A stretch of DNA of 53,002 nt, taken from contig CAMFEP010000001.1 in NCBI GenBank assembly GCA_945949405.1, positions 1-53,002 of the forward strand, written 5' to 3'. A model generated the notes under the pieces. It did no database searches, had not been told where the DNA came from, and saw only the letters and a program-made list of their open reading frames with translations. This document shows, piece by piece, positions 39,877 to 53,002 of this stretch; within the stretch, counting starts at the first letter, position 1; each line of letters begins with the position of its first letter. This DNA is from Kiritimatiellales bacterium (GTDB lineage: Bacteria > Verrucomicrobiota > Kiritimatiellia > UBA8416 > JAIOPI01). The position numbers were made by a program, and so were the translations under genes.

Positions 39877-39989
39877 TTCCCGTTCGGGAATATTCCATAT
39901 GCGCTTCGTCTCGTCAATTCATAAAGTTCCCGAACGGTAATATTTATTACATCGCGCCGACGCCAGGTGAATATGTTCCCGATCGGGAG
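39877..39989. promoter_or_regulatory. Three phased palindromic operators upstream of hipBA
   Basis: TTCCCGTTCGGGAA (39877-39890, perfect), TTCCCGAACGGTAA (39927-39940), TTCCCGATCGGGAG (39976-39989). Spacing is 50 and 49 bp. Flanks are shared ((A/T)(A/T)G before, TAT after the first two). Confidence 0.65.
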
Positions 39990-40172
39990 TGCCCGCAACC
40001 AAACATAGCCGCCAACCTGATCGCCCAGCTATGGACAACCTCGTCATGATGCGGGCGTCTTTCCTGTTTGTCGGCAACTGGCGTTCGCTTCGGGAACACG
40101 CCGTCGGCGAGAAGGCGGCCGTGGAGCGCAATGGCAGGACGTACTGCTCGGCGTCGTGGCTCGAGCCCTTCT

Positions 40173-40182
40173 CCCCCCCCCC
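40173..40182. repeat. C10 homopolymer (G10 on the gene strand) abutting the AraC-family stop codon
   Basis: Plus strand reads CT-CCCCCCCCCC-TCA. On the minus strand, TGA (40185-40183) is followed immediately by G10. Confidence 0.9.
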
Positions 40183-41082
40183 TCACGATTTGGCATGCCG
40201 GCTGCCCTTGTGGCGGTGGCGGTAGGTGCCGGGGGTACAGCAAAAGTGGCGCCGGAAGACGCGATCGAGGTGACTTTCGTGGGAGAAATCCCAGTCGAAG
40301 GCGATGGCCTTGATGGGAAAGTCGGTGAGGCTTAAATCCTGCGCGACGCCGTTCAGCCGACAGCGCAGGCCGAACTTCGCGAAGGAAACGCCCATTTCCT
40401 TCTCGAAGTGGCGGCTGAAGTGATCAACTGGCAGCTTGAGGCTGTCCGCCATCATCTCGGTGGTGAGGAGGCGGCGCGACTGCATGGCCTGGTTGGCGGC
40501 GAGGAGGACGTCGGTGTCGCGTTCGCGGTGGTGCTGCGGCACGGCGTCGGCAGCCGCAGTATTCATGAGGGCGAGCAGGGTCTCCATCAGAATCAACTGG
40601 ACGCGAATATCGCCGGTATCATGGCGCTGATGCACGGCCTCGGCGAAGCGTCGGCCCAAGGCCAGCATGGCATCGCGCTGCGCGGGCGGCACACGTCCCC
40701 GTTCTGTCGGCGGCGACTGAAACGGCGCCAACCAGTCGATGGGGGTGCCGCCGGGCAGGCGCGTCTCCACCAACAGCCCCCGCCGAAAAATCAGGAAGAC
40801 CAGATCGCAGGGAGCCTGCACGATCTGGTAGCCGTGCGGTTCGAAGGCGTCGTGCAGCCAAACCTCGCCGGGGCCGAGGTCGCGCTTGACCGGCCCCCAG
40901 AAGCGACGGACGCACCCTTTCAGCACCATCCCGAATTCCAGATCGTCATGGATGTCGAACCAGGGATGCCGATCCACCGGCTTGTCCACGCGGATGTCGC
41001 CCGTCATGGGGGCGCTGGCCGAAAGGTGGAAGTCGTAACGGATCAGGGCGGTTTTTGGGGGCTTTGTCTGCTTCCGCTTCAC
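40183..41082 (-). CDS. AraC-family transcriptional regulator (cupin N-domain plus HTH)
   Basis: 299 aa, GTG start in the track; ATG 41007 is an alternative. Cupin-like: HPWFDIHDDLEFGMVLKG...WLHDAFEPHGY. C-terminal HTH: MADSLKLPVDHFSRHFEKEMGVSFAKF...IKAIAFDWDFSHESHLDRVFRRHFCCTPGTYR. Confidence 0.85.
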   Translation of the reverse strand: MKRKQTKPPKTALIRYDFHLSASAPMTGDIRVDKPVDRHPWFDIHDDLEFGMVLKGCVRRFWGPVKRDLGPGEVWLHDAFEPHGYQIVQAPCDLVFLIFRRGLLVETRLPGGTPIDWLAPFQSPPTERGRVPPAQRDAMLALGRRFAEAVHQRHDTGDIRVQLILMETLLALMNTAAADAVPQHHRERDTDVLLAANQAMQSRRLLTTEMMADSLKLPVDHFSRHFEKEMGVSFAKFGLRCRLNGVAQDLSLTDFPIKAIAFDWDFSHESHLDRVFRRHFCCTPGTYRHRHKGSRHAKS

Positions 41083-41084
41083 GG

Positions 41085-41127
41085 TGCGGAATTATGCTGG
41101 AGGCCTTGGGATATGCAAGTCGGAAAG
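41085..41127 (+). promoter_or_regulatory. Conserved upstream motif, copy 1 (direct repeats GGAATTATGC / GGGATATGC 20 bp apart)
   Basis: TGCGGAATTATGCTGGAG-GCCTTGGG-ATATGCAAGTCGGAAAG. Nearly identical to 44373-44416. Lies between the AraC-family gene start and the beta-helix gene. Confidence 0.6.
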
Positions 41128-41191
41128 GGTGCCAATCGGGGCCCGCCAAGGTATTGATGGAAGCGCGCAGCATGCTCTCGCGCAGCGCGGT

Positions 41192-41204
41192 GGGGGGGGG
41201 GGGG
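41192..41204 (+). repeat. G13 homopolymer in the leader/promoter region of the beta-helix gene
   Basis: The sequence reads GCGGT-GGGGGGGGGGGGG-CGGCG. It lies 61 nt upstream of ATG 41265 and 65 nt downstream of the conserved motif. Confidence 0.9.
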
Positions 41205-41264
41205 CGGCGAACCGTTCATGTTCGATTCCGGCGGTGCAGATCCCGTCGACGAAAGGGTAGGGCC

Positions 41265-44237
41265 ATGTCGAAGCTACGCAGCCTGTGGGTGATTGCGGTA
41301 ATGGGCTTCGCAACCTGGAGCGGCGGGCGCACGACACAGGCTGCGGTGGTGTATGTGGATGCGGGGATGGCCGGCCGCGGCAGCGAAACCAACGGCCTCA
41401 GCTGGGAAACTCCCTGGATCGATCTTCAGTCCGCGCTCGGTGTGGCGGCCGGCGGCGATTCAATCTGGGTAGCCAGGGGCGTCTACAAACCCGGGGTCAG
41501 CACCAACGACGCCTTCGTGCTGCCGGGCGGCGGCCTGCTGTATGGTGGGTTCACCAACGGCATGGCAACGCTGGAGGAGCGCGTGCCCCTCAAGCATCTG
41601 ACGATTCTGAGCGGTGACCTCCTGGGCAATGACGGCCCCAGTTTTGCCAACCGCACAGACAACGCGCTGAATGTCATCCGTTGCACGGGCGGCACCACCC
41701 GCAGCAACATCCGTCTGGATGGGTTCGTGATCCGCGGTGGCAACGCCGATGGAGCCGGGGCGCCGAACGATACCGGCGGCGGCGGGCACTTTGACCTGTG
41801 CCACGGGCTGGTCATCGCCAACTGCGTCTTCACGGACAATTCCGGCAAGGGCAGCGGCGCCATTCGCCTGCGCCGCTCGAACAACGTGGAAATCCAAGAC
41901 TGCATTTTCAGCGGGAATCGCGCCACCGATGCCACCAGCAATTTCGGTTCCGGCGCGATCGGTGGCAACGACCAGTTCTTCACCAATGTCGGTTATCCCG
42001 CCAACGTGCGGCGCTGCATCTTCACGGGCAACGCCTCCGCCGGACTGGCGGGTGTGACCTACGATTCGTCCGCCGCCTGGAACATCAACTTCATCAACTG
42101 CCTGATGGCCGGCAACACGGCGCTCTCCAACGGTGGCGCGCTCTACCTGCGCGGCGGGACCAATGCCATGGTCAACTGCACGATCGCGCTTAACGACCCC
42201 TTTGGCGTGACGACGCGCCTGACCACGAACATCTGCGTCAACACGATCATCTGGAGCAATGGGCTGGGTGGGGTCGCGAATCCCGATGTGGACCGCCAGA
42301 ATGGCGGCACGCTGGCGGTGCAGTTCGCGGACATCAACCACGGGACGTACTTTGGGCTAAACGGCACGATCATGGCGGATCCGAAGTGGGGTGCGGGTAC
42401 GCAGAGCACCTGGAATGCGGCCGGGGTCTATAGTCCGGCCCTGGGCCAGACGCGGTTGCGTCGCACCACGGCCACCTGGGCGGCCGATGCCTACCGGGGC
42501 ATGACGGTTAATCCTGACATCACGCAGAAGCGCCACTTCCTGATCAGTTCAAACTCGGCGACCGAGGTCTATGTCTGGGGCGATGCGCAGGCGATCGCGG
42601 GCTCCGGCGATATGTTTCGCGTCTGGGATTTCCGCCTTGGCGCCGGCAGTCCCTGTATTGATACCGCGACCAACGGCATCGTGTCTGACGACGTCATCCG
42701 GACGCCCCGGCCGCGGGGATTTGCGACGGACATGGGCGCCTACGAGTCCACGGCGACGGGCACGGTTGCGGGTGTGATCTACGTGAAGGCCAACGCCGCC
42801 GGCGGCAACAACGGGTCGGCCTGGGAGCATGCCTACACGAATCTGCAGTCGGCGCTGGCCACGGCATCGGGCGACAGCAAGAACCAGATCTGGGTGGCCG
42901 CCGGCACATACCGGACGGGAGCCGGCGTGGCGGCGACGTTTCTGCTGCCCACCCGCGTGCCGGTCTACGGCGGCTTTGCGGGCAACGAGGTGGCCCTGGA
43001 ACAGCGCAACATCGCGGCCAACCCGACGATGCTCAGCGGCGACGGCGACAGCAACGACACCGCTAATTTCGCCAACCGCGCCAACAATGCGGCGCACGTG
43101 ATCTCGGATCTCTACACCAAGAACGTGCGGCTGGACGGGGTTGTGATTCGTGGCGGCAATGCCACCGGCGTCGCCAGTGCCGGCTATGGCGGCGGCCTGT
43201 ACAGCGAAGGCAGCACCAACCTCGTGATTGCAAACTGCTCGTTCGTGGACAATTCGGCGGTGGGCGGCGGCGCGGTCTACATCAATGAACCGGCGCCCGA
43301 CTGGGTCACGATTTCGGATTGCGTCTTCAGCGGCAATCGCGCGACAGAACAGGACAACGACGTGGGCGGCGGGGCGATCGCGGGGGCGCGCGAACCGCTG
43401 GCCGCCGGGTACTTGCGGGTGGAGCGCTGTGTGTTCACGGGCAACCGGGCGCCCCAGTCGATCGGCGGCGTCTACGCCATGCACAACGAGTATCCGCTGG
43501 TTTCGCGCTTCGAGAACTGCCTGGTGGCCGGCAACCAGTCGGGCTACACCAACGAGGTTGACATTACGGGTCCGCAGGGCGGCGCCTTCTATCTGCGCCG
43601 CACGAATGCGGTGGTTCAGAACTGCACCATCGCCCTCAACCAGCCCTACGGGATGACGATCCGGCACCTGACGGCGTCGGTACAAAACACGATATTGTGG
43701 AGCAACACGACGCGGCAGATTCTATTCCTGACCCCCAGTGCGGTGTCGGCCCTCGCGTGCGACATCGACCAAGAGAGCTTTGAGGGGGCGAACGGCAACA
43801 TCCGTCAGGATCCGCAGTGGGGGCTCGGTACGAACGGCGTCAGCACCGGCGTCACGTACAGCCCCGCCACCGGCCGGTCGACGCTGACGGTTTCCGGCAG
43901 CGCTTGGGCGGCCGGTGCCTTCGCCAACCGCGCGGTGAACCCGAATACGGCCCAGAGTCTGCAGTTCTGGATCGTCACGAACTCGGCCAGCCAGCTTACC
44001 GTTTGGGGTGACATCCAGGCCGTGGCCGGTGTCGGCAACCCCTTCCGGGTCTACGACTACCACTTGACGTCCGCGAGCCCCTGCGTCGACCGTGGGGCGC
44101 TGCCGGGCGCGCCCGGCACGGACCTGGAGCAGGCCGTGCGTCCGGTGGCGAGCTTCCCGGATATCGGGGCCTACGAATTCGGCCCCCACCTGTACCAGCC
44201 GCCGGCTGTTCCCGGTGTGCTTTTGATCGTACGTTGA
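41265..44237 (+). CDS. Secreted protein with two tandem parallel beta-helix (Pmp-like GGA/FxxN) modules
   Basis: ORF 41055..44237. Start taken at ATG 41265 (MSKLRSLWVIAVMGFATWSGGRTTQA signal peptide), 990 aa. Module heads: VVYVDAGMAGRGSETNGLSWETPWIDLQSALGVAAGGDSIWVARGVYKPG and VIYVKANAAGGNNGSAWEHAYTNLQSALATASGDSKNQIWVAAGTYRTG. Repeated turns: GGAIRL..., CIFSGNRA, GGALYLRGG..., CTIALN. Confidence 0.8.
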   Translation: MSKLRSLWVIAVMGFATWSGGRTTQAAVVYVDAGMAGRGSETNGLSWETPWIDLQSALGVAAGGDSIWVARGVYKPGVSTNDAFVLPGGGLLYGGFTNGMATLEERVPLKHLTILSGDLLGNDGPSFANRTDNALNVIRCTGGTTRSNIRLDGFVIRGGNADGAGAPNDTGGGGHFDLCHGLVIANCVFTDNSGKGSGAIRLRRSNNVEIQDCIFSGNRATDATSNFGSGAIGGNDQFFTNVGYPANVRRCIFTGNASAGLAGVTYDSSAAWNINFINCLMAGNTALSNGGALYLRGGTNAMVNCTIALNDPFGVTTRLTTNICVNTIIWSNGLGGVANPDVDRQNGGTLAVQFADINHGTYFGLNGTIMADPKWGAGTQSTWNAAGVYSPALGQTRLRRTTATWAADAYRGMTVNPDITQKRHFLISSNSATEVYVWGDAQAIAGSGDMFRVWDFRLGAGSPCIDTATNGIVSDDVIRTPRPRGFATDMGAYESTATGTVAGVIYVKANAAGGNNGSAWEHAYTNLQSALATASGDSKNQIWVAAGTYRTGAGVAATFLLPTRVPVYGGFAGNEVALEQRNIAANPTMLSGDGDSNDTANFANRANNAAHVISDLYTKNVRLDGVVIRGGNATGVASAGYGGGLYSEGSTNLVIANCSFVDNSAVGGGAVYINEPAPDWVTISDCVFSGNRATEQDNDVGGGAIAGAREPLAAGYLRVERCVFTGNRAPQSIGGVYAMHNEYPLVSRFENCLVAGNQSGYTNEVDITGPQGGAFYLRRTNAVVQNCTIALNQPYGMTIRHLTASVQNTILWSNTTRQILFLTPSAVSALACDIDQESFEGANGNIRQDPQWGLGTNGVSTGVTYSPATGRSTLTVSGSAWAAGAFANRAVNPNTAQSLQFWIVTNSASQLTVWGDIQAVAGVGNPFRVYDYHLTSASPCVDRGALPGAPGTDLEQAVRPVASFPDIGAYEFGPHLYQPPAVPGVLLIVR

Positions 44238-44372
44238 GCGCATGTGCGGGGGCGGCGCTGACGGCGTACACGCGGGCGTAAAGTTGAGGTTGAAGGGCTA
44301 CATCATTACCGGCGTGGACGCAGGGAGTGTTTCGCAGTTAAGCTTCCTCCCCCTGAGGCCTGCCCCGCGCGC

Positions 44373-44416
44373 TGCGGAATTATGCTGGAGACACAGGAAT
44401 ATGCAGGTCGGACAAG
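44373..44416 (+). promoter_or_regulatory. Conserved upstream motif, copy 2
   Basis: TGCGGAATTATGCTGGAG-ACACAGGA-ATATGCAGGTCGGACAAG. Lies 100 nt upstream of ATG 44516. The 18-nt left block is identical to copy 1 and the right block differs at 3 positions. Confidence 0.6.
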
Positions 44417-44515
44417 TTGTCTGATTGTCTGGAAATAGTTAAAATTTGGTGTGAAATGGGCTTAGGTCCAACCGGTCTGTATCGTCGCGCGCGCGCCTTG
44501 GGAGGCATCCAACGT

Positions 44516-47500
44516 ATGAACATCTGGCGTCAGCTATGCTGGGTTGTGGGGATGGGGCTGGTGGCGGGGTGGGGCGGGTTGCCGGCGGCACGGGCGACGG
44601 ACTGCTCGGGCGGCAATTCCACGAACGACAGTGGCGGATACCGGATTCACACCTTCACCAGCGGCGGCACGCTGACCGTCAACACGGCCGGCAACGTCGA
44701 CGTGCTGGTGGTGGGCGGTGGCGGCGGCGGCGGCGGCTATGTGGGTGGCGGCGGCGGTGGCGGCGGCGTGATTTACACCTCGGGCTTTTCGGTGGTGGCC
44801 GGCGGCATCTCCGTGACGGTGGGGACGGGCGGTACGGCGGGCGCGAACGCGGACGCGGGTTCCGCCACGGGCGGCGCGGGCGGGAGCAGCATCTTTTCCT
44901 CCCTCACGGCCGGCGGCGGCGGCGGGGGTGGTCGAGCCTACAACCACAACAACGGCTCGGTGGCCGCCGGTTCGGGTGGCGGCGCCGGTTGCAGCAACGG
45001 CGGCGTGAAGACCGGGCAATCCGGAACCAGCGGCCAGGGAACCAGCGGCGGCGACTCCTCCGCAACGTCGAACTATGGCGCTGGCGGCGGCGGCGGCGCC
45101 GGAGGGGCCGGCTCCAACGGCACGGACACCAAGGGCGGTGACGGAGGCCCTGGGTCCACGAATTCGATTTCCGGTGCGAGCGTGACGTATGGCGGCGGCG
45201 GCGGCGGCGGCAAATACTTTGGCACCTCCGGCGGTAGCGCGGTATCCGGTGGTGGCGGCAATGCGGGCAGTCCGGGACAAGCGGGGACGGCCAATCGCGG
45301 TGGTGGCGGTGGCGGCGGCGGGGTGAATCCAACCGCCGTCGGCGGCGTCGGCGGCACCGGTGTCGTCATCGTGCGCTATGCGCTGCCTGGAACACTCTCG
45401 ATCGATGTCACGCCCAACACGGCGTCGTGGACGATCACGTCCTATGCCGGTGGCTACGCGGGGCCCTTGAGCGGCACCGGTGACCTGGCGGCGACAACGG
45501 CTCCCGTGGGCAGCTACACCGTCCACTACAACGTGCTGGGCGGCTACAGCGCCCCGGCGGATCAGACGCTGAGCGTGGTCGCGAGCGCGAACACGGCGTT
45601 CAGCGGCACCTACGTGGCGGCGGTGTATGGCACGCTGTCGATCGACGTGACGCCGAACACCGGGTCCTGGACCATCACCTCGCATCCGCCAGAATACACC
45701 TCGCCGCTGAGCGGAACGGGAGACCTGGCGGCAACGACCGCCATCGTGGGCAGCTACACCGTTCACTACGAAGCGCTCGCGGGCTATTTTGCGCCGGCCG
45801 ACGAGACGCTTTCCGTGGTCGACAGCGTGAACACCGCGTTCACAGGGACGTACACGGCGGTAACGTATGGCACGCTCTCGATCAACGTCACACCGGACGC
45901 AGCGTCATGGACCATCACCGCGTACCCCGGCCCCTATGCGGGACCGTACAGCGGCAGCGGCGACCTGGCGGCAACGACCGCACCGATCGGCAGCTACACG
46001 GTGCACTACAACACGCTTGCGGGCTACCTGGCGCCTGCTGACCAGACGCTGTCCGTGGCGCTCAGCGCGAACACGGCCTTCAGCGGATACTATCCCCGGG
46101 AGCCGTTTGCGGCGACGGGCGGCAACTCGACCAACGACGTTGGCGGGTATCGCATTCACACCTTCACCAGCGGCGGCACGCTGACCTTCAACACCAACGG
46201 CAGCGTCGACGTGCTCGTGGTGGGCGGCGGCGGCGGTGGTGGCGGCTACGTGGGCGGCGGCGGCGGCGCGGGCGGTGTGATTTATCAGACGGGGTTTGCC
46301 ATTGCCGGGGCGGGTGGAATTTCCGTGACGGTTGGGACGGGCGGTGCGGCCGGGGCGAATATCGACGGGCCGACGGGCTCTGGCACGGCGGGCAATGCGA
46401 GCACGTTCTCCTCGCTCACGGCCGGTGGTGGCGGCGGTGGTGGCCGGGCCTACAACCATAACAATGCCACCACGGCGGCGGGTTCGGGCGGTGGCGCCGG
46501 AACGGGCGTTAGCCGGATCGGACAATCGGGAACCGCCCCTCAGGGAACCAAAGGCGGGGACTCGGATGTTACGAGCAATGAGGGCGCTGGCGGCGGCGGC
46601 GGGGCCAGTGCGGGTGGTGGCAACGGCAACGCGACCAAGGGCGGCGATGGTGGCGCCGGCGTCGCGAATTCGATTTCTGGTTCGAGCGTGACGTATGGTG
46701 GCGGTGGCGGTGGCGCGGCGTACTTTGGCACGGCCGGCGCCGGCGGCGCGGGCGGCGGCGGGAGCGCGGCTAACCCAGGTGTGGCCGGCACGGCCAACCG
46801 CGGCGGCGGCGGCGGTGGCGGCGGCGTTTCGGTCACGACGTCCGCGGGCGGCGCCGGCGGCTCGGGCATCGTGATTGTGCGGTATGCCCTGCCGGGCACG
46901 CTCTCCATCGACGTCACGCCAAACACGGCCTCGTGGACCATCAGCGCGTATGCGGCGGGATACTCAGGGCCGACCAACGGCACCGGGGATCTCGCGGCGA
47001 CCACCGCGCCCGTCGGCAGCTACACCGTTCATTATGAAACGCTCGCGAGCTACAGCGCCCCGGCGGATCAAACGCTGAGCGTCACGGCCCAGAACAACAC
47101 GGCGTTCAGCGGCACCTATACGGCGGCGGCCTACGGCACGCTCTCGATCGAGGTGACGCCCAACTCGGGCTCGTGGACGATCACGTCGCACCCGCCGGAA
47201 TACACGACGCCGTTGAGCGGCACCGGGGATCAGGCGCCGACCAACGCCATCGCCGGCAGCTACACGGTTCACTATGAAACGCTCGCCGGGCACCTGGCGC
47301 CGGCGGATCAGACGCTGAGCGTGGTGGCGAGTTCCAACACGGCCTTCAGCGGAACCTATACGGCGTTGACCTACGGGACACTCTCGATTGACGTGACGCC
47401 GAATTCGGGTTCGTGGACGATCACGTCATACCCCGCGGGGTACTTGACGCCGCTGAGCGGCAGCGGCGACCTGGCTGCCACCGCCGCGCCAGTGGGCAGC

Positions 47501-50500
47501 TACACCGTGCATTACAACACGCTCGCGGGCTATGACACGCCGGGCGACCAGACTCAGTCGGTGGTCGACAGCGTCAACACGGCGTTCAGCGGGGCCTACG
47601 TCGAGCAGCCGTTCGCGGGCACCGGCGGCAACACAACCAACGACGTCGGCAACTACCGCATCCACACCTTCACCAGCGGTGGCACCCTGACCGTCAACAA
47701 GAACGGCGTGGTCGACGTCCTCGTCGTGGGCGGCGGCGGCGGGGGTGGCGGCTACATCGGCGGCGGTGGCGGGGCCGGTGGCGTGATCGCCTCGAACGGC
47801 TTGAGCGTGTCGGCCGGCGCCATCACGGTGACGGTCGGCAGCGGCGGCGCGGCTGGCGCCAATGCAGACGCGATCAGTGGGTTCGGCGGGCCGGGCGGCG
47901 ACAGCGTGTTCGCCTCGCTCACGGCGGTCGGGGGCGGGCGCGGCGGGCGCGCGTACAACGACAACACGGGGACGGGCGGCTCAGGCGGCGGCGCCGGCGG
48001 CGGCAACGGCGTCGTGAAAACCGGGCAATCCGGCACCGCGGGCCAGGGCAGCAACGGCGGGAATTCCTCGACGACGTCGAACGGCGGCGCGGGCGGTGGC
48101 GGTGGCGCGAGCACCGCGGGCGCCAATGCGGTGACATACTCCGGCGGCAACGGCGGGGCCGGGATCACCAATGCCATCACCGGCACCAGCGTGACCTACG
48201 GTGGCGGCGGCGGCGGTGGTACATTTACGGGGGCCATCGCCGGCAGCGGCGGCACGGGCGGCGGTGGCAGTGGCGGCAGCACCCCGCAGGCGGGCACGGC
48301 CAATCGCGGCGGCGGCGGCGGCGGCGGCGGCTTCAACGGCAGCACGGGTGCAGGCGCCGCGGGCGGCTCGGGCGTCGTGATTGTGCGCTATCTCCTCAGC
48401 GGCACACTGTCGATCGACGTGACCCCGAACTCCGGATCCTGGACGATCACGTCGTACCCGGCTGGCTACACGGGCCCCACCAACGGAACCGGCGACCTGG
48501 CCGCGAACGTGGCGGTGGCCGGCAGCTACACGGTGCACTATGGCGCGCTGGCAGGCTACACCGCGCCCGCGGACCAGACGCTCGCGGTATCGCCCAGTGC
48601 GAACACCGCGTTCAGTGGTACCTACGTGGCGTTGGTATACGGGACACTGTCGATCGACGTGACGCCCAACACGGGCTCCTGGACCGTCTCCGCGTATCCG
48701 GCCGGCTATACGGGCCCGACCAACGGCACCGGCGACCTGGCGGCCACCGCCGCGCCGGTGGGCAGCTACACGGTGCAGTACGGCGTGCTCGGGGGCTACA
48801 GCGCGCCGGCGTCGCAGACGCTGGCGGTTACCGTCAGCGCGAACACCGCCTTCAGCGGGACCTACGTGCTGATCACCTACGGCACGCTGTCGATCGACGT
48901 GACGCCGAACGCGGGGACCTGGACGATCACCGCGTACCCGCCTGAGTACACGACGCCCCTGAGCGGGAGCGGAGACCTCGCGGCGACGACGGCGCCGGTG
49001 GGCAGCTATACCGTGGCGTACGGGACGCTGGGCGGCTACAACACGCCGGCGGACCAGACGCTGGCCGTGGTGGAGAGCGTGAACACGGCATTCACTGGGA
49101 CGTACGTCGAACAGCCATTTGCGGGAACGGGCGGCAACTCCACCAACGTCATCGGCGGCTATCGCATCCACACCTTCACCAGCGGCGGCACGCTCTCATT
49201 CAACAAGACCGGCGTCGTCGACGTGCTGGTGGTCGGCGGCGGCGGCGGTGGCGGCGGGTTTGTTGGCGGCGGCGGCGGCGGTGGCGGCCTGCTCTACCAG
49301 ACGGGATTTGCGGTGGCGGCTGGGACGGTTTCCATCACGGTGGGTTCGGGCGGCACGGCGGGAGCCAACGTGTCCACCACCGGATTCGGCGGACCCGGCG
49401 GCAACAGCGTGTTCTCGAATCTCACGGCCATTGGCGGCGGTGGCGGCGGGGCCAACTACGTCAACAACCCCGGCACCTACGGTTCCGGCGGCGGTGCGGG
49501 CTGCACGCAGACCGGTGTGCCCACCACGGGGCAATCCGGCACGGTTGGCCAGGGCAACCAAGGCGGGAGTTCGTCCTCATCGGTGAATGGCGGATCCGGC
49601 GGCGGCGGCGGCGCGGGTGCGGCCGGCGCGAACGCCTCCGGATCCTCCGGCGGATCGGGTGGGGCGGGACAGACCAACGCGATTTCCGGCGCCAGCGTGA
49701 CCTATGCCGGCGGCGGCGGCGGTGGCACGTTCACCGGCAGCGTGGCCGGCAACGGCGGTGCGGGCGGCGGCGGCAATGGCGGCAATCCCGCGCAGGTCGG
49801 CACTGCGAATCGCGGTGGCGGCGGCGGTGGCGGCGGGTTCAACGGCAGCACGGGCGTGGGCGCCGCGGGCGGTTCCGGCATCGTGATTGTGCGTTATGCG
49901 CTGTACGGCACACTGTCCATCGACGTCACGCCCAACACGGGCACGTGGATGATCACGAGCTATCCGGCGTACTACACCGGGCCAACCAACGGCACCGGGG
50001 ATCTGGGCGTGACCGTGGCGGCGGCGGGCAGCTACACCGTGCAGTATGGGACCATGCCGGGCTACCACACGCCGGCGTCGCAGACACTTGACGTCACCGA
50101 GGACAACAACACCGCGTTCAGTGGGACGTATGTCTTGAAGACCTATGGCACGCTCTCGATTGATGTCACGCCGAACACGGCGTCGTGGACGATCACGTCG
50201 TACCCGCCGGAATACACGACGCCATTGAGCGGCACGGGCGACCAGGCGGCGACGGCGGCGGTGGAAGGCAGCTACACGGTGCACTTCAACGCGCTTGCGG
50301 GCTATCACGCCCCGGCTGACCAGACGCTCGCGGTCGTGGGCAGCGCCAACACGGCCTTCAGCGGCGCCTACGTGTCCATTTACCGGTACGTCAACGACAA
50401 CGCGACGGGCGCGAACAACGGCACCAGCTGGGCCAACGCCTTTACGAATCTGGACACGGCGCTGAGTGCGGCCATCAGCGGCGACGAGCTCTGGGTGGCG

Positions 50501-51844
50501 GCGGGGACCTACAAGCCCGGTATGCTGACGACGGATCGCTTCAATCTGAAGAGCGACGTGGCGCTGTACGGCGGGTTCGCCGGAACCGAGTCTGCGCGCA
50601 GCGGACGCGACTGGGCCGCGAATACGACGATCCTTTCGGGCGACCTCAACGGTGACGACACGTCGGGCTGGGGCAACCGCGCCGACAACGCGGTGAATGT
50701 GCTCTATGCCAGCGGCCTGACGGGCGTGGTGCTGGACGGGGTCACGGTGCTGGGCGGTTACAGCACGACGGGCAACGGCGGCGGCTTGAGCGCCAGTGCG
50801 TCCACGGTCACCGTGGCCAACTGCGTGTTCACGGACAACCGGGCGCTGAACGGCGGCGGCCTATATTTGAACAGCACGCCGGCGACCATCGAGAGCTGTC
50901 GGTTCGTCAGCAATGGGACGCCCAGCGGCGGCCAGGGCGCCGGGTTGTGGGCGCAGAGCGCATCCGCCGGCGTATCGGGCACCATCCTGAACTCCGTTTT
51001 CTTCGACAACGTGTGCGGCGTTTCCGGCAGCGGTGACGGGGGCGGGGCCTGGCTGAAGGACAACTCCTACACCCTCGTCAACTGCACGATCCACGGCAAC
51101 TATGCCGGACGGCGCGGTGGCGGTCTCAAACTGGGCAGTCAGGGCGTCACGCCGGTGACCTTCGTGGTGAAGAACTGCATCGTGCTGAACAACACGATTG
51201 GGAGCGGCAGCGGCCCGGATGTCTACACCCAGGCCGACAGCGGGACGTCGCAAACGCTGGACATGAGCTACTGCAACTGGGCGGGTGGCGGGACCTTCGG
51301 CAACTTCAGCGCCACCGTCAACACCGCCAACATGCAGGTGGCCAATCCGCTGTTCGAAAATGCTGCCGGCGGCGACTTCCACCTCACCTCGGGCAGTCCC
51401 TGCAAAAACGCCGGCACGGCCACGGGCGCCCCCGCGCTCGATTTCGACGGCATCACCCGCGACGCCTCGCCCGACATCGGCGCGTACGAATACGTGACGC
51501 CGCTGACGGTGACGATTGACCAGGCGGTGGGGCAGGCGGACCCGACCAGCGGGGCCACGATCAACTTCACGGTGGTGTTCAGCGCGGCGGTGGCGGATTT
51601 CGTGACGGGCGATGTGACGCTGGGCGGGACGGCGGGCGCGACGACGGCGGTGGTCAGCGGCGGTCCCACGACCTACAACGTGGCGGTGAGCGGCATGACG
51701 GTCGACGGCTCGGTGATCGCAACGATCGACGCGGGTCGGGCGCACGCGGCGGCGGGCAACGCCAACCTGGCCTCGAGCAGTACGGACAACACGGTGACGT
51801 ACAACGTGCCGCTGCCCGCCGTTACCGTGATCAAGTTTAAGTAA
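44516..51844 (+). CDS. Giant secreted protein: 4 x glycine-run domain, each with Ig-like repeats (11 in total), plus a parallel beta-helix and a C-terminal Ig-like domain
   Basis: ORF 44417..51844 (TTG). ATG 44516 is preferred ([27 protein letters not shown] signal peptide), 2,442 aa. Glycine-run blocks start in frame at 44609, 46118, 47624 and 49130. Beta-helix head: [47 protein letters not shown]. See findings. Confidence 0.85.
   Translation: [2442 protein letters not shown]
44609..50374 (+). repeat. In-frame tandem super-repeat, period 1,509/1,506/1,506 bp, 3.8 copies, with nested approx. 246-bp Ig-like sub-repeats
   Basis: GGCGGCAA(T/C) unit starts at 44609, 46118, 47624 and 49130. Each unit is a 257-aa Gly-run block plus 3 x 82-aa repeats; the last unit has 2. 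Copies are diverged (many synonymous and non-synonymous differences by eye), so they are not recent duplicates. Confidence 0.85.
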
Positions 51845-51858
51845 CGACCGTTCGGTTG

Positions 51859-51978
51859 GACGGGATGTACAGGATTTACAGGATTGCAGTTGATCGACGG
51901 CAATCATGGCATGGCGCATTTGTCGGGGGCTGCGTCGGTTCGCCGACTCGCCATCCTGTACATCCCGTCTATCCCGTC
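51859..51978. repeat. Composite hairpin: perfect 17-bp inverted repeat built from (A)C(G/A)GGAT units, 77-bp spacer
   Basis: GACGGGATGTACAGGAT (51859-51875) followed by an extra TTACAGGAT unit. ATCCTGTACATCCCGTC (51953-51969) followed by an extra TATCCCGTC unit. The spacer contains GTCGG-TTCG-CCGAC (51934-51947). Confidence 0.8.
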
Positions 51979-53002
51979 TTTCTGTTCTGAGCGATCGAGA
52001 ACGGAAGGTAAGATTCGCGGACGCAGTAGTCTGGTGTGGGCGGCGGTGCTGCTCGGGTTGTGGTGCGGAGAGCTGCCGGCACATGCGCAAGGCGCAGCGC
52101 CGCCAGAAATTATCAACGCGGGCCCCACGTCGATCACGGCTCACGGGGCTATGGCGCAGGTGGATCTGCTCTCCACCGGCGCGGCGCCAACCCAGGTGTG
52201 GATCTACTGGGGCGACGAGGATGGCGGTACGAACCAGGCTGGCTGGGATGCCGGCATCGCGCTGGATTGGCAGCCGGCGGGTCCGCTGGCTGCGGCCCTC
52301 GGCGATCTCGCCGACGTGCGGATCTACTACTACCGCGGTTACGCCTCCAACGCGTTCGGCGACGCGTGGGCACCCGACAGCCAGAGTTTCACCACCCGGC
52401 TGGATTTCGTCGCGATTGGCGGCACCAACTGGATCGGCGAGAACATGGACTTCGAGGACGCGATCACCCCGCGCCCCGGGTTTCCCTACATCGTGTGGGA
52501 CTGGGACGGCCACAACTATGTGAACGTTGGCAAGGACGGCACCTTGCGGCCCATGCGCGGGAATCTCATGATGGAGGCGGGCTCCACCACACGCCCCTGG
52601 GAATCGAACTACGCCGTCTACCACGACGTATTCAACCGTCAAGGCCCCCCCTACCTCGACTTCGCGCGCTACCGGGAAGCGATCACGAACGGCACGGCCC
52701 GATTCGTATTCACCTTCCACTACAACCGCGTCTCGTCGGCGTTCGATCCGCTGGTGGACACCATGGTGTTCGGCCAGGTCACCTTCTACAACCCGGCCAA
52801 TCAGGAAATCATCTCGCTCGGATGGCCCCGCGAAAGCCACTTCGCCTCGGACAACGACCCGGCGACGTGGGAGGCCGCGACGATCACCGCCGTCCTGCCG
52901 CCGACAGCCGTGCACGTCCGCATCTGGCTGGGGTGGTACGAAAACGTGAGCAACGAACAGGCGGCCGGGCAGGAATTCCGGGGCAACTACTTCGACAACA
53001 TC
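51911..53002 (+). CDS. Secreted protein with Fn3-like N-domain; partial, continues beyond the right window edge; start uncertain
   Basis: Absent from the ORF track (no stop in window). The frame is open from ATG 51911 to 53002. It reads ...KIRGRSSLVWAAVLLGLWCGELPAHAQGAAPPEIINAGPTSITAHGAMAQVDLLSTGAAPTQVWIYWGDEDGGTNQAGW...VRIYYYRGYASNAFGDAWAPDSQSFTT..., then ...FRGNYFDNI at the edge. The signal-peptide-like segment begins only near 52010. Confidence 0.6.
   Translation, partial: MAHLSGAASVRRLAILYIPSIPSFCSERSRTEGKIRGRSSLVWAAVLLGLWCGELPAHAQGAAPPEIINAGPTSITAHGAMAQVDLLSTGAAPTQVWIYWGDEDGGTNQAGWDAGIALDWQPAGPLAAALGDLADVRIYYYRGYASNAFGDAWAPDSQSFTTRLDFVAIGGTNWIGENMDFEDAITPRPGFPYIVWDWDGHNYVNVGKDGTLRPMRGNLMMEAGSTTRPWESNYAVYHDVFNRQGPPYLDFARYREAITNGTARFVFTFHYNRVSSAFDPLVDTMVFGQVTFYNPANQEIISLGWPRESHFASDNDPATWEAATITAVLPPTAVHVRIWLGWYENVSNEQAAGQEFRGNYFDNI

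Follow-up and report, generated by a model that had tools for sequence, protein, structure and literature searches.

Within the window, that is, the whole stretch of 53,002 nucleotides analysed here (contig C1 of its assembly), a 43-bp sequence element is found twice, each time directly upstream of a gene for a large secreted protein, and its first copy stands next to the gene of an AraC/XylS-family regulator. The locus thereby raises the question of what this element does: is it the site through which the neighbouring regulator controls both genes, as the first-pass annotation had proposed, or does it owe its two copies to something else? To our knowledge, the Lentisphaerae/Victivallales have few cultured members and no characterised promoter or operator, and the element offers a concrete, testable entry into their gene regulation. 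A regulatory role would also make the expression of secreted beta-helix and Gly_rich_2 proteins of very large size depend on a regulator of the AraC type that responds to a ligand. The features of the locus are collected in Table 1.

Table 1 Features of the regulator locus, with positions numbered from the first letter of the window. Promoters and the operator role of the element are predictions.
Feature	Position	Strand	Sequence or product	Context
AraC/XylS-family regulator gene	40183-41082	-	299 aa, GTG start at 41082	N-terminal cupin-like regulatory domain, C-terminal double-HTH domain
Putative operator, copy 1	41085-41127	+	TGCGGAATTATGCTGGAG-GCCTTGGG-ATATGCAAGTCGGAAAG	between the AraC-family gene and gene 1; conserved tail GTCGGA
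Copy 1, 17-bp direct-repeat unit 1	41085-41101	+		
Copy 1, 17-bp direct-repeat unit 2	41104-41120	+		
Predicted regulator promoter	41091-41118	-	-35 TTGCAT (41118-41113), 16-nt spacer, -10 CATAAT (41096-41091)	
Predicted gene 1 promoter	41129-41157	+	-35 GTGCCA (41129-41134), 17-nt spacer, -10 TATTGA (41152-41157)	
Gene 1	41265-44237	+	990 aa, secreted, Chlam_PMP repeats and choice-of-anchor Q domains	presumed target
Putative operator, copy 2	44373-44416	+	TGCGGAATTATGCTGGAG-ACACAGGA-ATATGCAGGTCGGACAAG	upstream of the Gly_rich_2 giant gene; without a divergent gene
Copy 2, unit 1	44373-44389	+		
Copy 2, unit 2	44392-44408	+		
Predicted gene 2 promoter	44417-44445	+	TTGTCT, 17-nt spacer, TAAAAT	
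Gene 2	44516-51844	+	2442 aa, secreted, four Gly_rich_2 domains	presumed target

The 43-bp element, the regulator and the presumed target genes

Direct reading of the sequence confirmed both copies at the positions first assigned to them, and their left block of 18 nt is identical, as had been claimed. Even with a tolerance of three mismatches, the window contains two matches to this 18-mer, where 0.03 would be expected by chance, and none of 100 shuffles gave two. A search of the whole genome, which the first-pass annotation had called for, covered the assembly of 1.96 Mb in 163 contigs (63% G+C, 76% complete) and was run both with mismatches and with a 43-column weight matrix derived from all the element copies that were subsequently found. 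Copies 1 and 2 of the window were the only ones in the assembly; they scored 58.4 and 56.7 bits with the matrix, the next best site reaching 14.6 bits. The 43-bp element is real and non-random, and the possibility of a dispersed repeat is ruled out by the two scans, which found just these two copies.

The open reading frame beside copy 1 had been read as an AraC-family regulator, and it matched the Pfam model HTH_18 with an E-value of 3.7e-19 (69 bits, cut-off 33.6) as well as HTH_AraC (E 2.4e-07). Its sequence matches in the PDB were the DNA-binding domains of MarA, SoxS, RamA and Rob. The AlphaFold model of the protein, which is of moderate quality (pLDDT 72, with residues 1-40 disordered), exhibited seven helices over residues 191-291. 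With Foldseek, the model matched ToxT, Rns, CsvR and CuxR over the full length (265-288 columns), and its N-terminal half matched the regulatory domains of AraC (2ARC, 1XJA), RhaR and BgaR; the best full-length structural matches were ToxT and Rns, at a sequence identity of just ~10-13%. No Pfam model matched the N-terminal domain, and the 22 NCBIfam equivalog matches, all far below their cut-offs (FeaR at 54.7 versus 199, AraC at 32.9 versus 208), gave no named subfamily. To judge by its sequence, the regulator is a generic member of the AraC/XylS family, and the modelled fold places it in the two-domain AraC subgroup (AraC, RhaS/R, XylS, ToxT), with a predicted N-terminal ligand-binding/dimerisation domain.

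Three orthologs align with the regulator from the first residues, and the length differences are in frame. The GTG codon was retained as the real start because a conserved N-terminal block, LIRYDFHLS, precedes the sole alternative Met, which is replaced by Leu in one ortholog. Copy 1 had been described as abutting the start of the regulator gene; measured from this GTG, the gap is 2 nt.

Both presumed targets had been called giant genes. The term holds for gene 2, but gene 1 is large rather than giant. Each of the two is preceded by a GGAGG-like Shine-Dalgarno site, and Gly_rich_2 proteins are similar to phage tail-fibre tips. A third large open reading frame (51884-53002) begins 40 nt after gene 2; since no copy of the element lies in between, it may well be co-transcribed with gene 2.

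Repeat structure and conservation of the element

Direct repeats inside the element had been proposed with half-site starts 20 bp apart. The repeats are present, but their period is 19 bp. When the first 17 nt (unit 1) were compared with the downstream sequence, an offset of 19 nt gave the best match of all offsets in 10 of 11 copies, with matches at 7 to 15 of the 17 positions depending on the copy, and a scan with a unit-1 matrix placed the second unit at offset 19 in 9/10 copies. The repeat is weak in window copy 1 (7/17), clearer in window copy 2 (10/17) and best in the copy C80b of the related genome G003, where 15/17 positions match (TGCGGAAATATGCTGGA-ta-TCCGGAAATATGCAGGA). The consensus of the 17-bp unit, repeated with a 19-bp period, is TGCGGAATTATGCTGGA, with TGC at positions 1 and 11. 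The element thus consists of two 17-bp direct repeats, a size within the 15-17 bp of the half-sites in a dimer operator of the AraC/XylS type. The period of 19 bp is near, but not equal to, the classical spacing of about two helical turns (21 bp); half-site spacing differs among members of the AraC/XylS family.

Orthologs of the regulator at 79-80% identity were found in two MAGs, G001, which is congeneric, and G003, which belongs to the same family; further ones, at 98-49% identity, were found on short metagenome contigs. In seven distinct orthologous loci (62-100% protein identity) the element adjoins the start codon of the regulator gene, with a gap of 2-5 nt, and at every ortholog it stands out as a conserved patch, the intergenic sequence around it being unalignable. 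In G001 the same synteny of regulator, gene 1 and gene 2 is observed, with an ortholog of gene 1 and with a copy 2. When six genomes of the family were searched with relaxed criteria and the right block was then checked, exactly seven true bipartite copies emerged: the genome of the window (G000) and G001 have two each, and G003 has three; the other three genomes (G002, G004, G005) have neither an ortholog of the regulator nor a bipartite copy. The link between regulator and element is drawn from their adjacency and from their co-occurrence in just six genomes of the family.

Two of the three copies of G003 (C80:3353 and C80:12037) are located on contig C80, the regulator gene being elsewhere, on contig C5. 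Each of them precedes a Gly_rich_2 giant, of 2807 aa and of more than 1073 aa, and one has a same-strand ATPase gene upstream and no divergent gene. Together with window copy 2 and its counterpart in G001, they are the four full copies unlinked to the regulator gene. As full copies occur without a divergent regulator gene, the element is not merely the promoter of the regulator. These four copies are mutually homologous, so that features common to them count as one lineage.

The gene beside the regulator differs by locus, although it is transcribed divergently in all of them: it codes for a PMP-repeat protein in G000 and G001, for an LTD/CotH giant in G003 and for Gly_rich-type proteins in the more distant loci L144 and L149. 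On contig C5 of G003 (L015, 9017-19814), this divergent neighbour is a protein of 2082 aa with six lamin-tail domains and CotH, and its gene is followed by a PhyH oxygenase gene and then by a gene for a beta-helix/PMP protein; PhyH genes are also present near the window locus. A metagenome contig, L140 (ERZ27265268 k141_1569732), is 99% identical to window positions 39910-41151, and the homology ends exactly before the predicted -10 hexamer of gene 1 (41151/41152). Beyond the breakpoint lie a gene for a DDE transposase (DruA/DDE_Tnp_1_assoc) and then unrelated genes. In this strain-level variant the regulator and the operator copy are uncoupled from gene 1.

Among 60 relatives, the exact bipartite pattern was found in the window's own genome only. 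A search of genome contigs gave no MAGs beyond the two already found, and a scan of JGI metagenomes with the regulator alignment gave no match. A 17-mer scan of metagenome contigs returned 120 matched stretches, none of them with the right block, and all are therefore chance matches. Among the orthologs, sequences and changes were too few for covariation between the recognition helix and the operator to be interpreted, and a literature search on Victivallales and AraC found nothing relevant.

Paralogous AraC-like regulators with 33-38% identity, namely L006 (G020), L012 (G003:C5:27270-28139) and L013 (G001:C37:105571-106377), have a similar layout at their starts: the start codon, an AT-rich block containing a -10, a TGCAAG/TACAAC core and, 32 nt on, a -10-like hexamer (TATCAT, TATGCT). 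As divergent targets they have other genes, some of them for apparent glycoside hydrolases. This layout may be a feature of the whole regulator clade, and the elements of the paralogs fit common promoter constraints as well as they fit related operators.

Predicted promoters within and beside the element

On the minus strand, the predicted promoter of the regulator gene is embedded in copy 1, and its -10 ends 8 nt before the GTG. The copies linked to a regulator gene read TTGCAT(/C/A)-N16-CATAAT on this strand, followed by 7-11 nt and the start codon, and the position of the -10 is kept in all orthologs even where its bases differ (CATAAT, TACAAT, TATATT). No Shine-Dalgarno or other purine-rich stretch precedes the regulator start in any of the orthologs. 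Leaderless promoters are marked by a -10 that precedes the start codon by about 7 nt and by a missing Shine-Dalgarno, and the mRNA of the regulator seems to have no leader or hardly any. The minus-strand promoter matches the consensus at 8 of 12 positions and was absent from the output of a consensus scanner run over positions 40950-44600. As these -35 and -10 hexamers lie inside the regulator's own putative operator, autorepression of the regulator gene is plausible. The two classes of copies differ at base 5 of the core, which is always TGCAAG or TGCAAC (TTG on the minus strand) in copies linked to the regulator gene and TGCAGG (CTG on the minus strand) in the four unlinked copies; this split fits an extra promoter constraint that would apply only where the regulator gene is present.

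On the plus strand, 8 of 11 copies have a -10-like hexamer, defined by at least 4/6 matches with A2 and T6, that starts exactly 32 nt after the core TGCARG (offset 67, counted from the beginning of the motif). TAAAAT stands at this offset in four copies, and TAAGAT, TAGATT, CACAAT and TACAAT in the others; the TAAAAT or TAAGAT form is found at the matching offset in the G001 and G003 C80 copies. Two further copies have a hexamer at offset 68 or 69, and window copy 1 has TATTGA, which at 3/6 is the weakest match among the copies and also stands at offset 67. With a genome background of 0.0066 -10-like hexamers per position, the occurrence at one offset in 5 of 8 independent lineages corresponds to p ~4e-8, corrected for the 55 offsets tried. 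In the interval covered by the scanner, the predicted gene 2 promoter was the sole sigma-70-like site. Transcription is predicted to start near 41164 for gene 1 and near 44452 for gene 2, and at about 41083-41085 on the minus strand for the regulator gene. If it starts ~7 nt after the -10, the element would span about -79 to -40. Between its end and the predicted -35, which it abuts without overlap, are a few bp (~4-8 bp counted from the proximal repeat). The sites of XylS, AraC and AggR, described below, occupy this zone as well. The -35 hexamers are mostly poor (GGTGCA, GTGCCA, CTTGCC), and the position of the element upstream of a poor -35 suggests that the plus-strand promoter is activator-dependent.

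Two other promoter classes were rejected by eye: a sigma-54 promoter, the GG/GC spacing being 16 instead of 10, and an ECF promoter, with 26 nt from GGAAT to GTC instead of 16-17. The promoters of the Gly_rich_2 genes have in common a block, TGCAGGA(T/A)TGTCTGGAA, located between -35 and -10 at offset 45 (window 44418-44437, G001 copy 2, L159 and L165). Aligned without gaps, it matches the repeat unit at 10/17 positions and is the second-best matrix match; it may be a third, promoter-overlapping half-site, so that copies of this second type may carry three repeats. In G000, the 5' part of the block is replaced by a local duplication, TTGTCTGATTGTCTG, which makes a better -35. In G001 and G003, the Gly_rich_2 genes keep another stretch, GGGTTnGGGTGACACCGGnCTG, in their predicted 5' UTR; its sites are window 44458-44480, where it is partly present, G001 copy 2, L159 and L165.

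Could the element then be a promoter only? It would be a back-to-back divergent sigma-70 core in which the minus-strand hexamers drive the regulator gene and no regulator is bound, the unlinked copies being remnants or antisense/non-coding promoters. The conserved blocks do coincide with the minus-strand TTGCAT-N16-CATAAT, with the variable N8 in its spacer, the -10 remains a -10 despite its base changes, and distant paralogs exhibit a similar layout. However, in the four copies that have no minus-strand gene, unit 1 (all 17 positions) and the right block are preserved amid diverged neighbouring bases, and these copies have weaker hexamers (CTGCAY, and CACAAT in two of them) and no conservation downstream on the minus strand. 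Moreover, conservation reaches well past the hexamers, and two independent promoters would need no fixed distance of 32 nt to the plus-strand -10. We consider this explanation unlikely.

Proposed regulation through the element and its known parallels

The 43-bp element is probably the operator of the adjacent AraC-family regulator, which would activate its targets and repress its own gene. Comparative genomics supports in this respect the earlier reading, in which the neighbouring regulator acts on both genes through the element, and adds to it the 19-bp repeat, the fixed promoter geometry and the putative leaderless promoter embedded in the site. We infer that the regulator binds the element, that its effect on the targets is activation and that transcription starts at the positions predicted above. 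Each of the two 17-bp direct repeats would presumably be bound by one double-HTH domain of a regulator dimer, and the regulator bound at about -79 to -40 would activate a sigma-70-type promoter with a poor -35, copy 1 serving gene 1 and copy 2 the Gly_rich_2 giant. When copy 1 is occupied, the -35 and -10 of the regulator gene would be covered and the gene repressed. From the model one would expect three sites of transcription start and a regulon of small size. Such a mechanism, with a direct-repeat operator, a divergent target and autoregulation, is standard for the family, and its value here lies in the annotation and in the dual use of one site.

A genuine transcription-factor site might also have another binding partner than the adjacent regulator. 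Two of the G003 copies are indeed on a contig without the regulator gene, and the pairing of this protein with this DNA is suggested only by gene position and co-occurrence. On the other hand, the site adjoins the regulator gene in every ortholog found, site and ortholog are both missing from G002, G004 and G005, and 17-bp direct repeats upstream of the -35 are the typical format of the AraC/XylS family (PMC5481539). A different binding protein therefore seems improbable to us.

It is very improbable that the copies are scars of an insertion or duplication with no regulatory role, such as repeats on either side of a gene 1 cassette, att-like sites or ends of mobile elements. Copies 1 and 2 flank gene 1 as direct repeats, and in L144 and L149 the regulator is directly beside the Gly_rich-type gene, so that gene 1 looks like a later insertion accompanied by duplication of the element; for this reason, duplication or insertion is probably how the two copies came to flank gene 1. 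It leaves their retention unexplained. The arrangement is older than the split of G000 and G001, and both copies were kept while the flanking DNA diverged; G003 has the element before other genes, no recombinase gene is found nearby, and the element is not dispersed in the genome. A structured RNA leader (riboswitch or attenuator) common to both mRNAs, which might be suggested by the place of the element ahead of the two coding regions, on their coding strand, can be practically dismissed, since no Rfam match overlaps the element, its folding energy is no better than that of shuffled sequences on either strand (z = 0.75, -0.70, 1.34, 0.24) and, being upstream of the conserved -10 hexamer, it is probably untranscribed on the plus strand.

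The preferred reading, an operator of the AraC-family regulator, has parallels in well-studied systems. XylS binds two 15-bp direct repeats at the Pm promoter of the TOL plasmid pWW0, each with two sub-boxes ~10 bp apart (PMC5481539). The element resembles this site in having two homologous direct repeats of ~15-17 bp upstream of a predicted sigma-70-type promoter, and the TGC at positions 1 and 11 of its unit resembles the sub-boxes. Unlike Pm, where the period is 21 bp and a repeat overlaps the -35, the period here is 19 bp and the proximal repeat ends a few bp before the -35; the sequences are unrelated, and the targets would be surface-protein genes instead of a catabolic operon.

In E. 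coli, the direct-repeat half-sites of araI (I1-I2) extend to about -78, and AraC represses its own promoter via an overlapping site. The I2 site lies at -35 to -51 (PMC11434276). The present locus shares with araC-araBAD the divergent arrangement of regulator and target, the direct-repeat half-sites and the combination of cupin dimerisation and double-HTH domains, and the predicted promoter of the regulator likewise overlaps the predicted operator. Unlike in the ara system, neither a distant O2-type looping site nor a CRP site is apparent; the predicted activation and the autorepression would both be exerted from a single compact site of 43 bp, and the regulator mRNA appears leaderless.

The group of AggR, Rns and ToxT comprises activators from the AraC family that turn on genes for adhesins or pili, activation depending on where exactly the site lies with respect to the promoter elements (PMC6392122); they bind short AT-rich sites, often as monomers. 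For AggR, placing one site correctly gives AggR dependence (PMC6392122). The surface-protein targets and the fixed distance from site to promoter are features that the present system would share with this group, to which the best structural matches of the regulator, ToxT and Rns, belong. It differs from these systems in its 17-bp direct repeats, in place of short AT-rich sites, and in its host, a free-living uncultured Victivallales bacterium.

A broader version of the operator reading is possible, although we doubt it more than we credit it: the element would be a compact portable module of the whole clade of Victivallales AraC-like regulators, which represses an embedded leaderless promoter, activates a divergent or distant target at a fixed 32 nt and has been copied before successive giant surface-protein genes, so that one ligand-sensing regulator would switch a coat of giant proteins.

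Two homopolymers were also found at the locus. A G13 tract (41192-41204) falls within the stretch predicted as 5' UTR of gene 1, after the predicted start at ~41164 and before the ATG at 41265, and is absent from the orthologous region of G001; it may represent a switch prone to slippage or else an artefact of the assembly. A C10 run (40173-40182, G10 on the gene strand) directly follows the stop codon of the regulator gene, which is thus bracketed by two long homopolymers.
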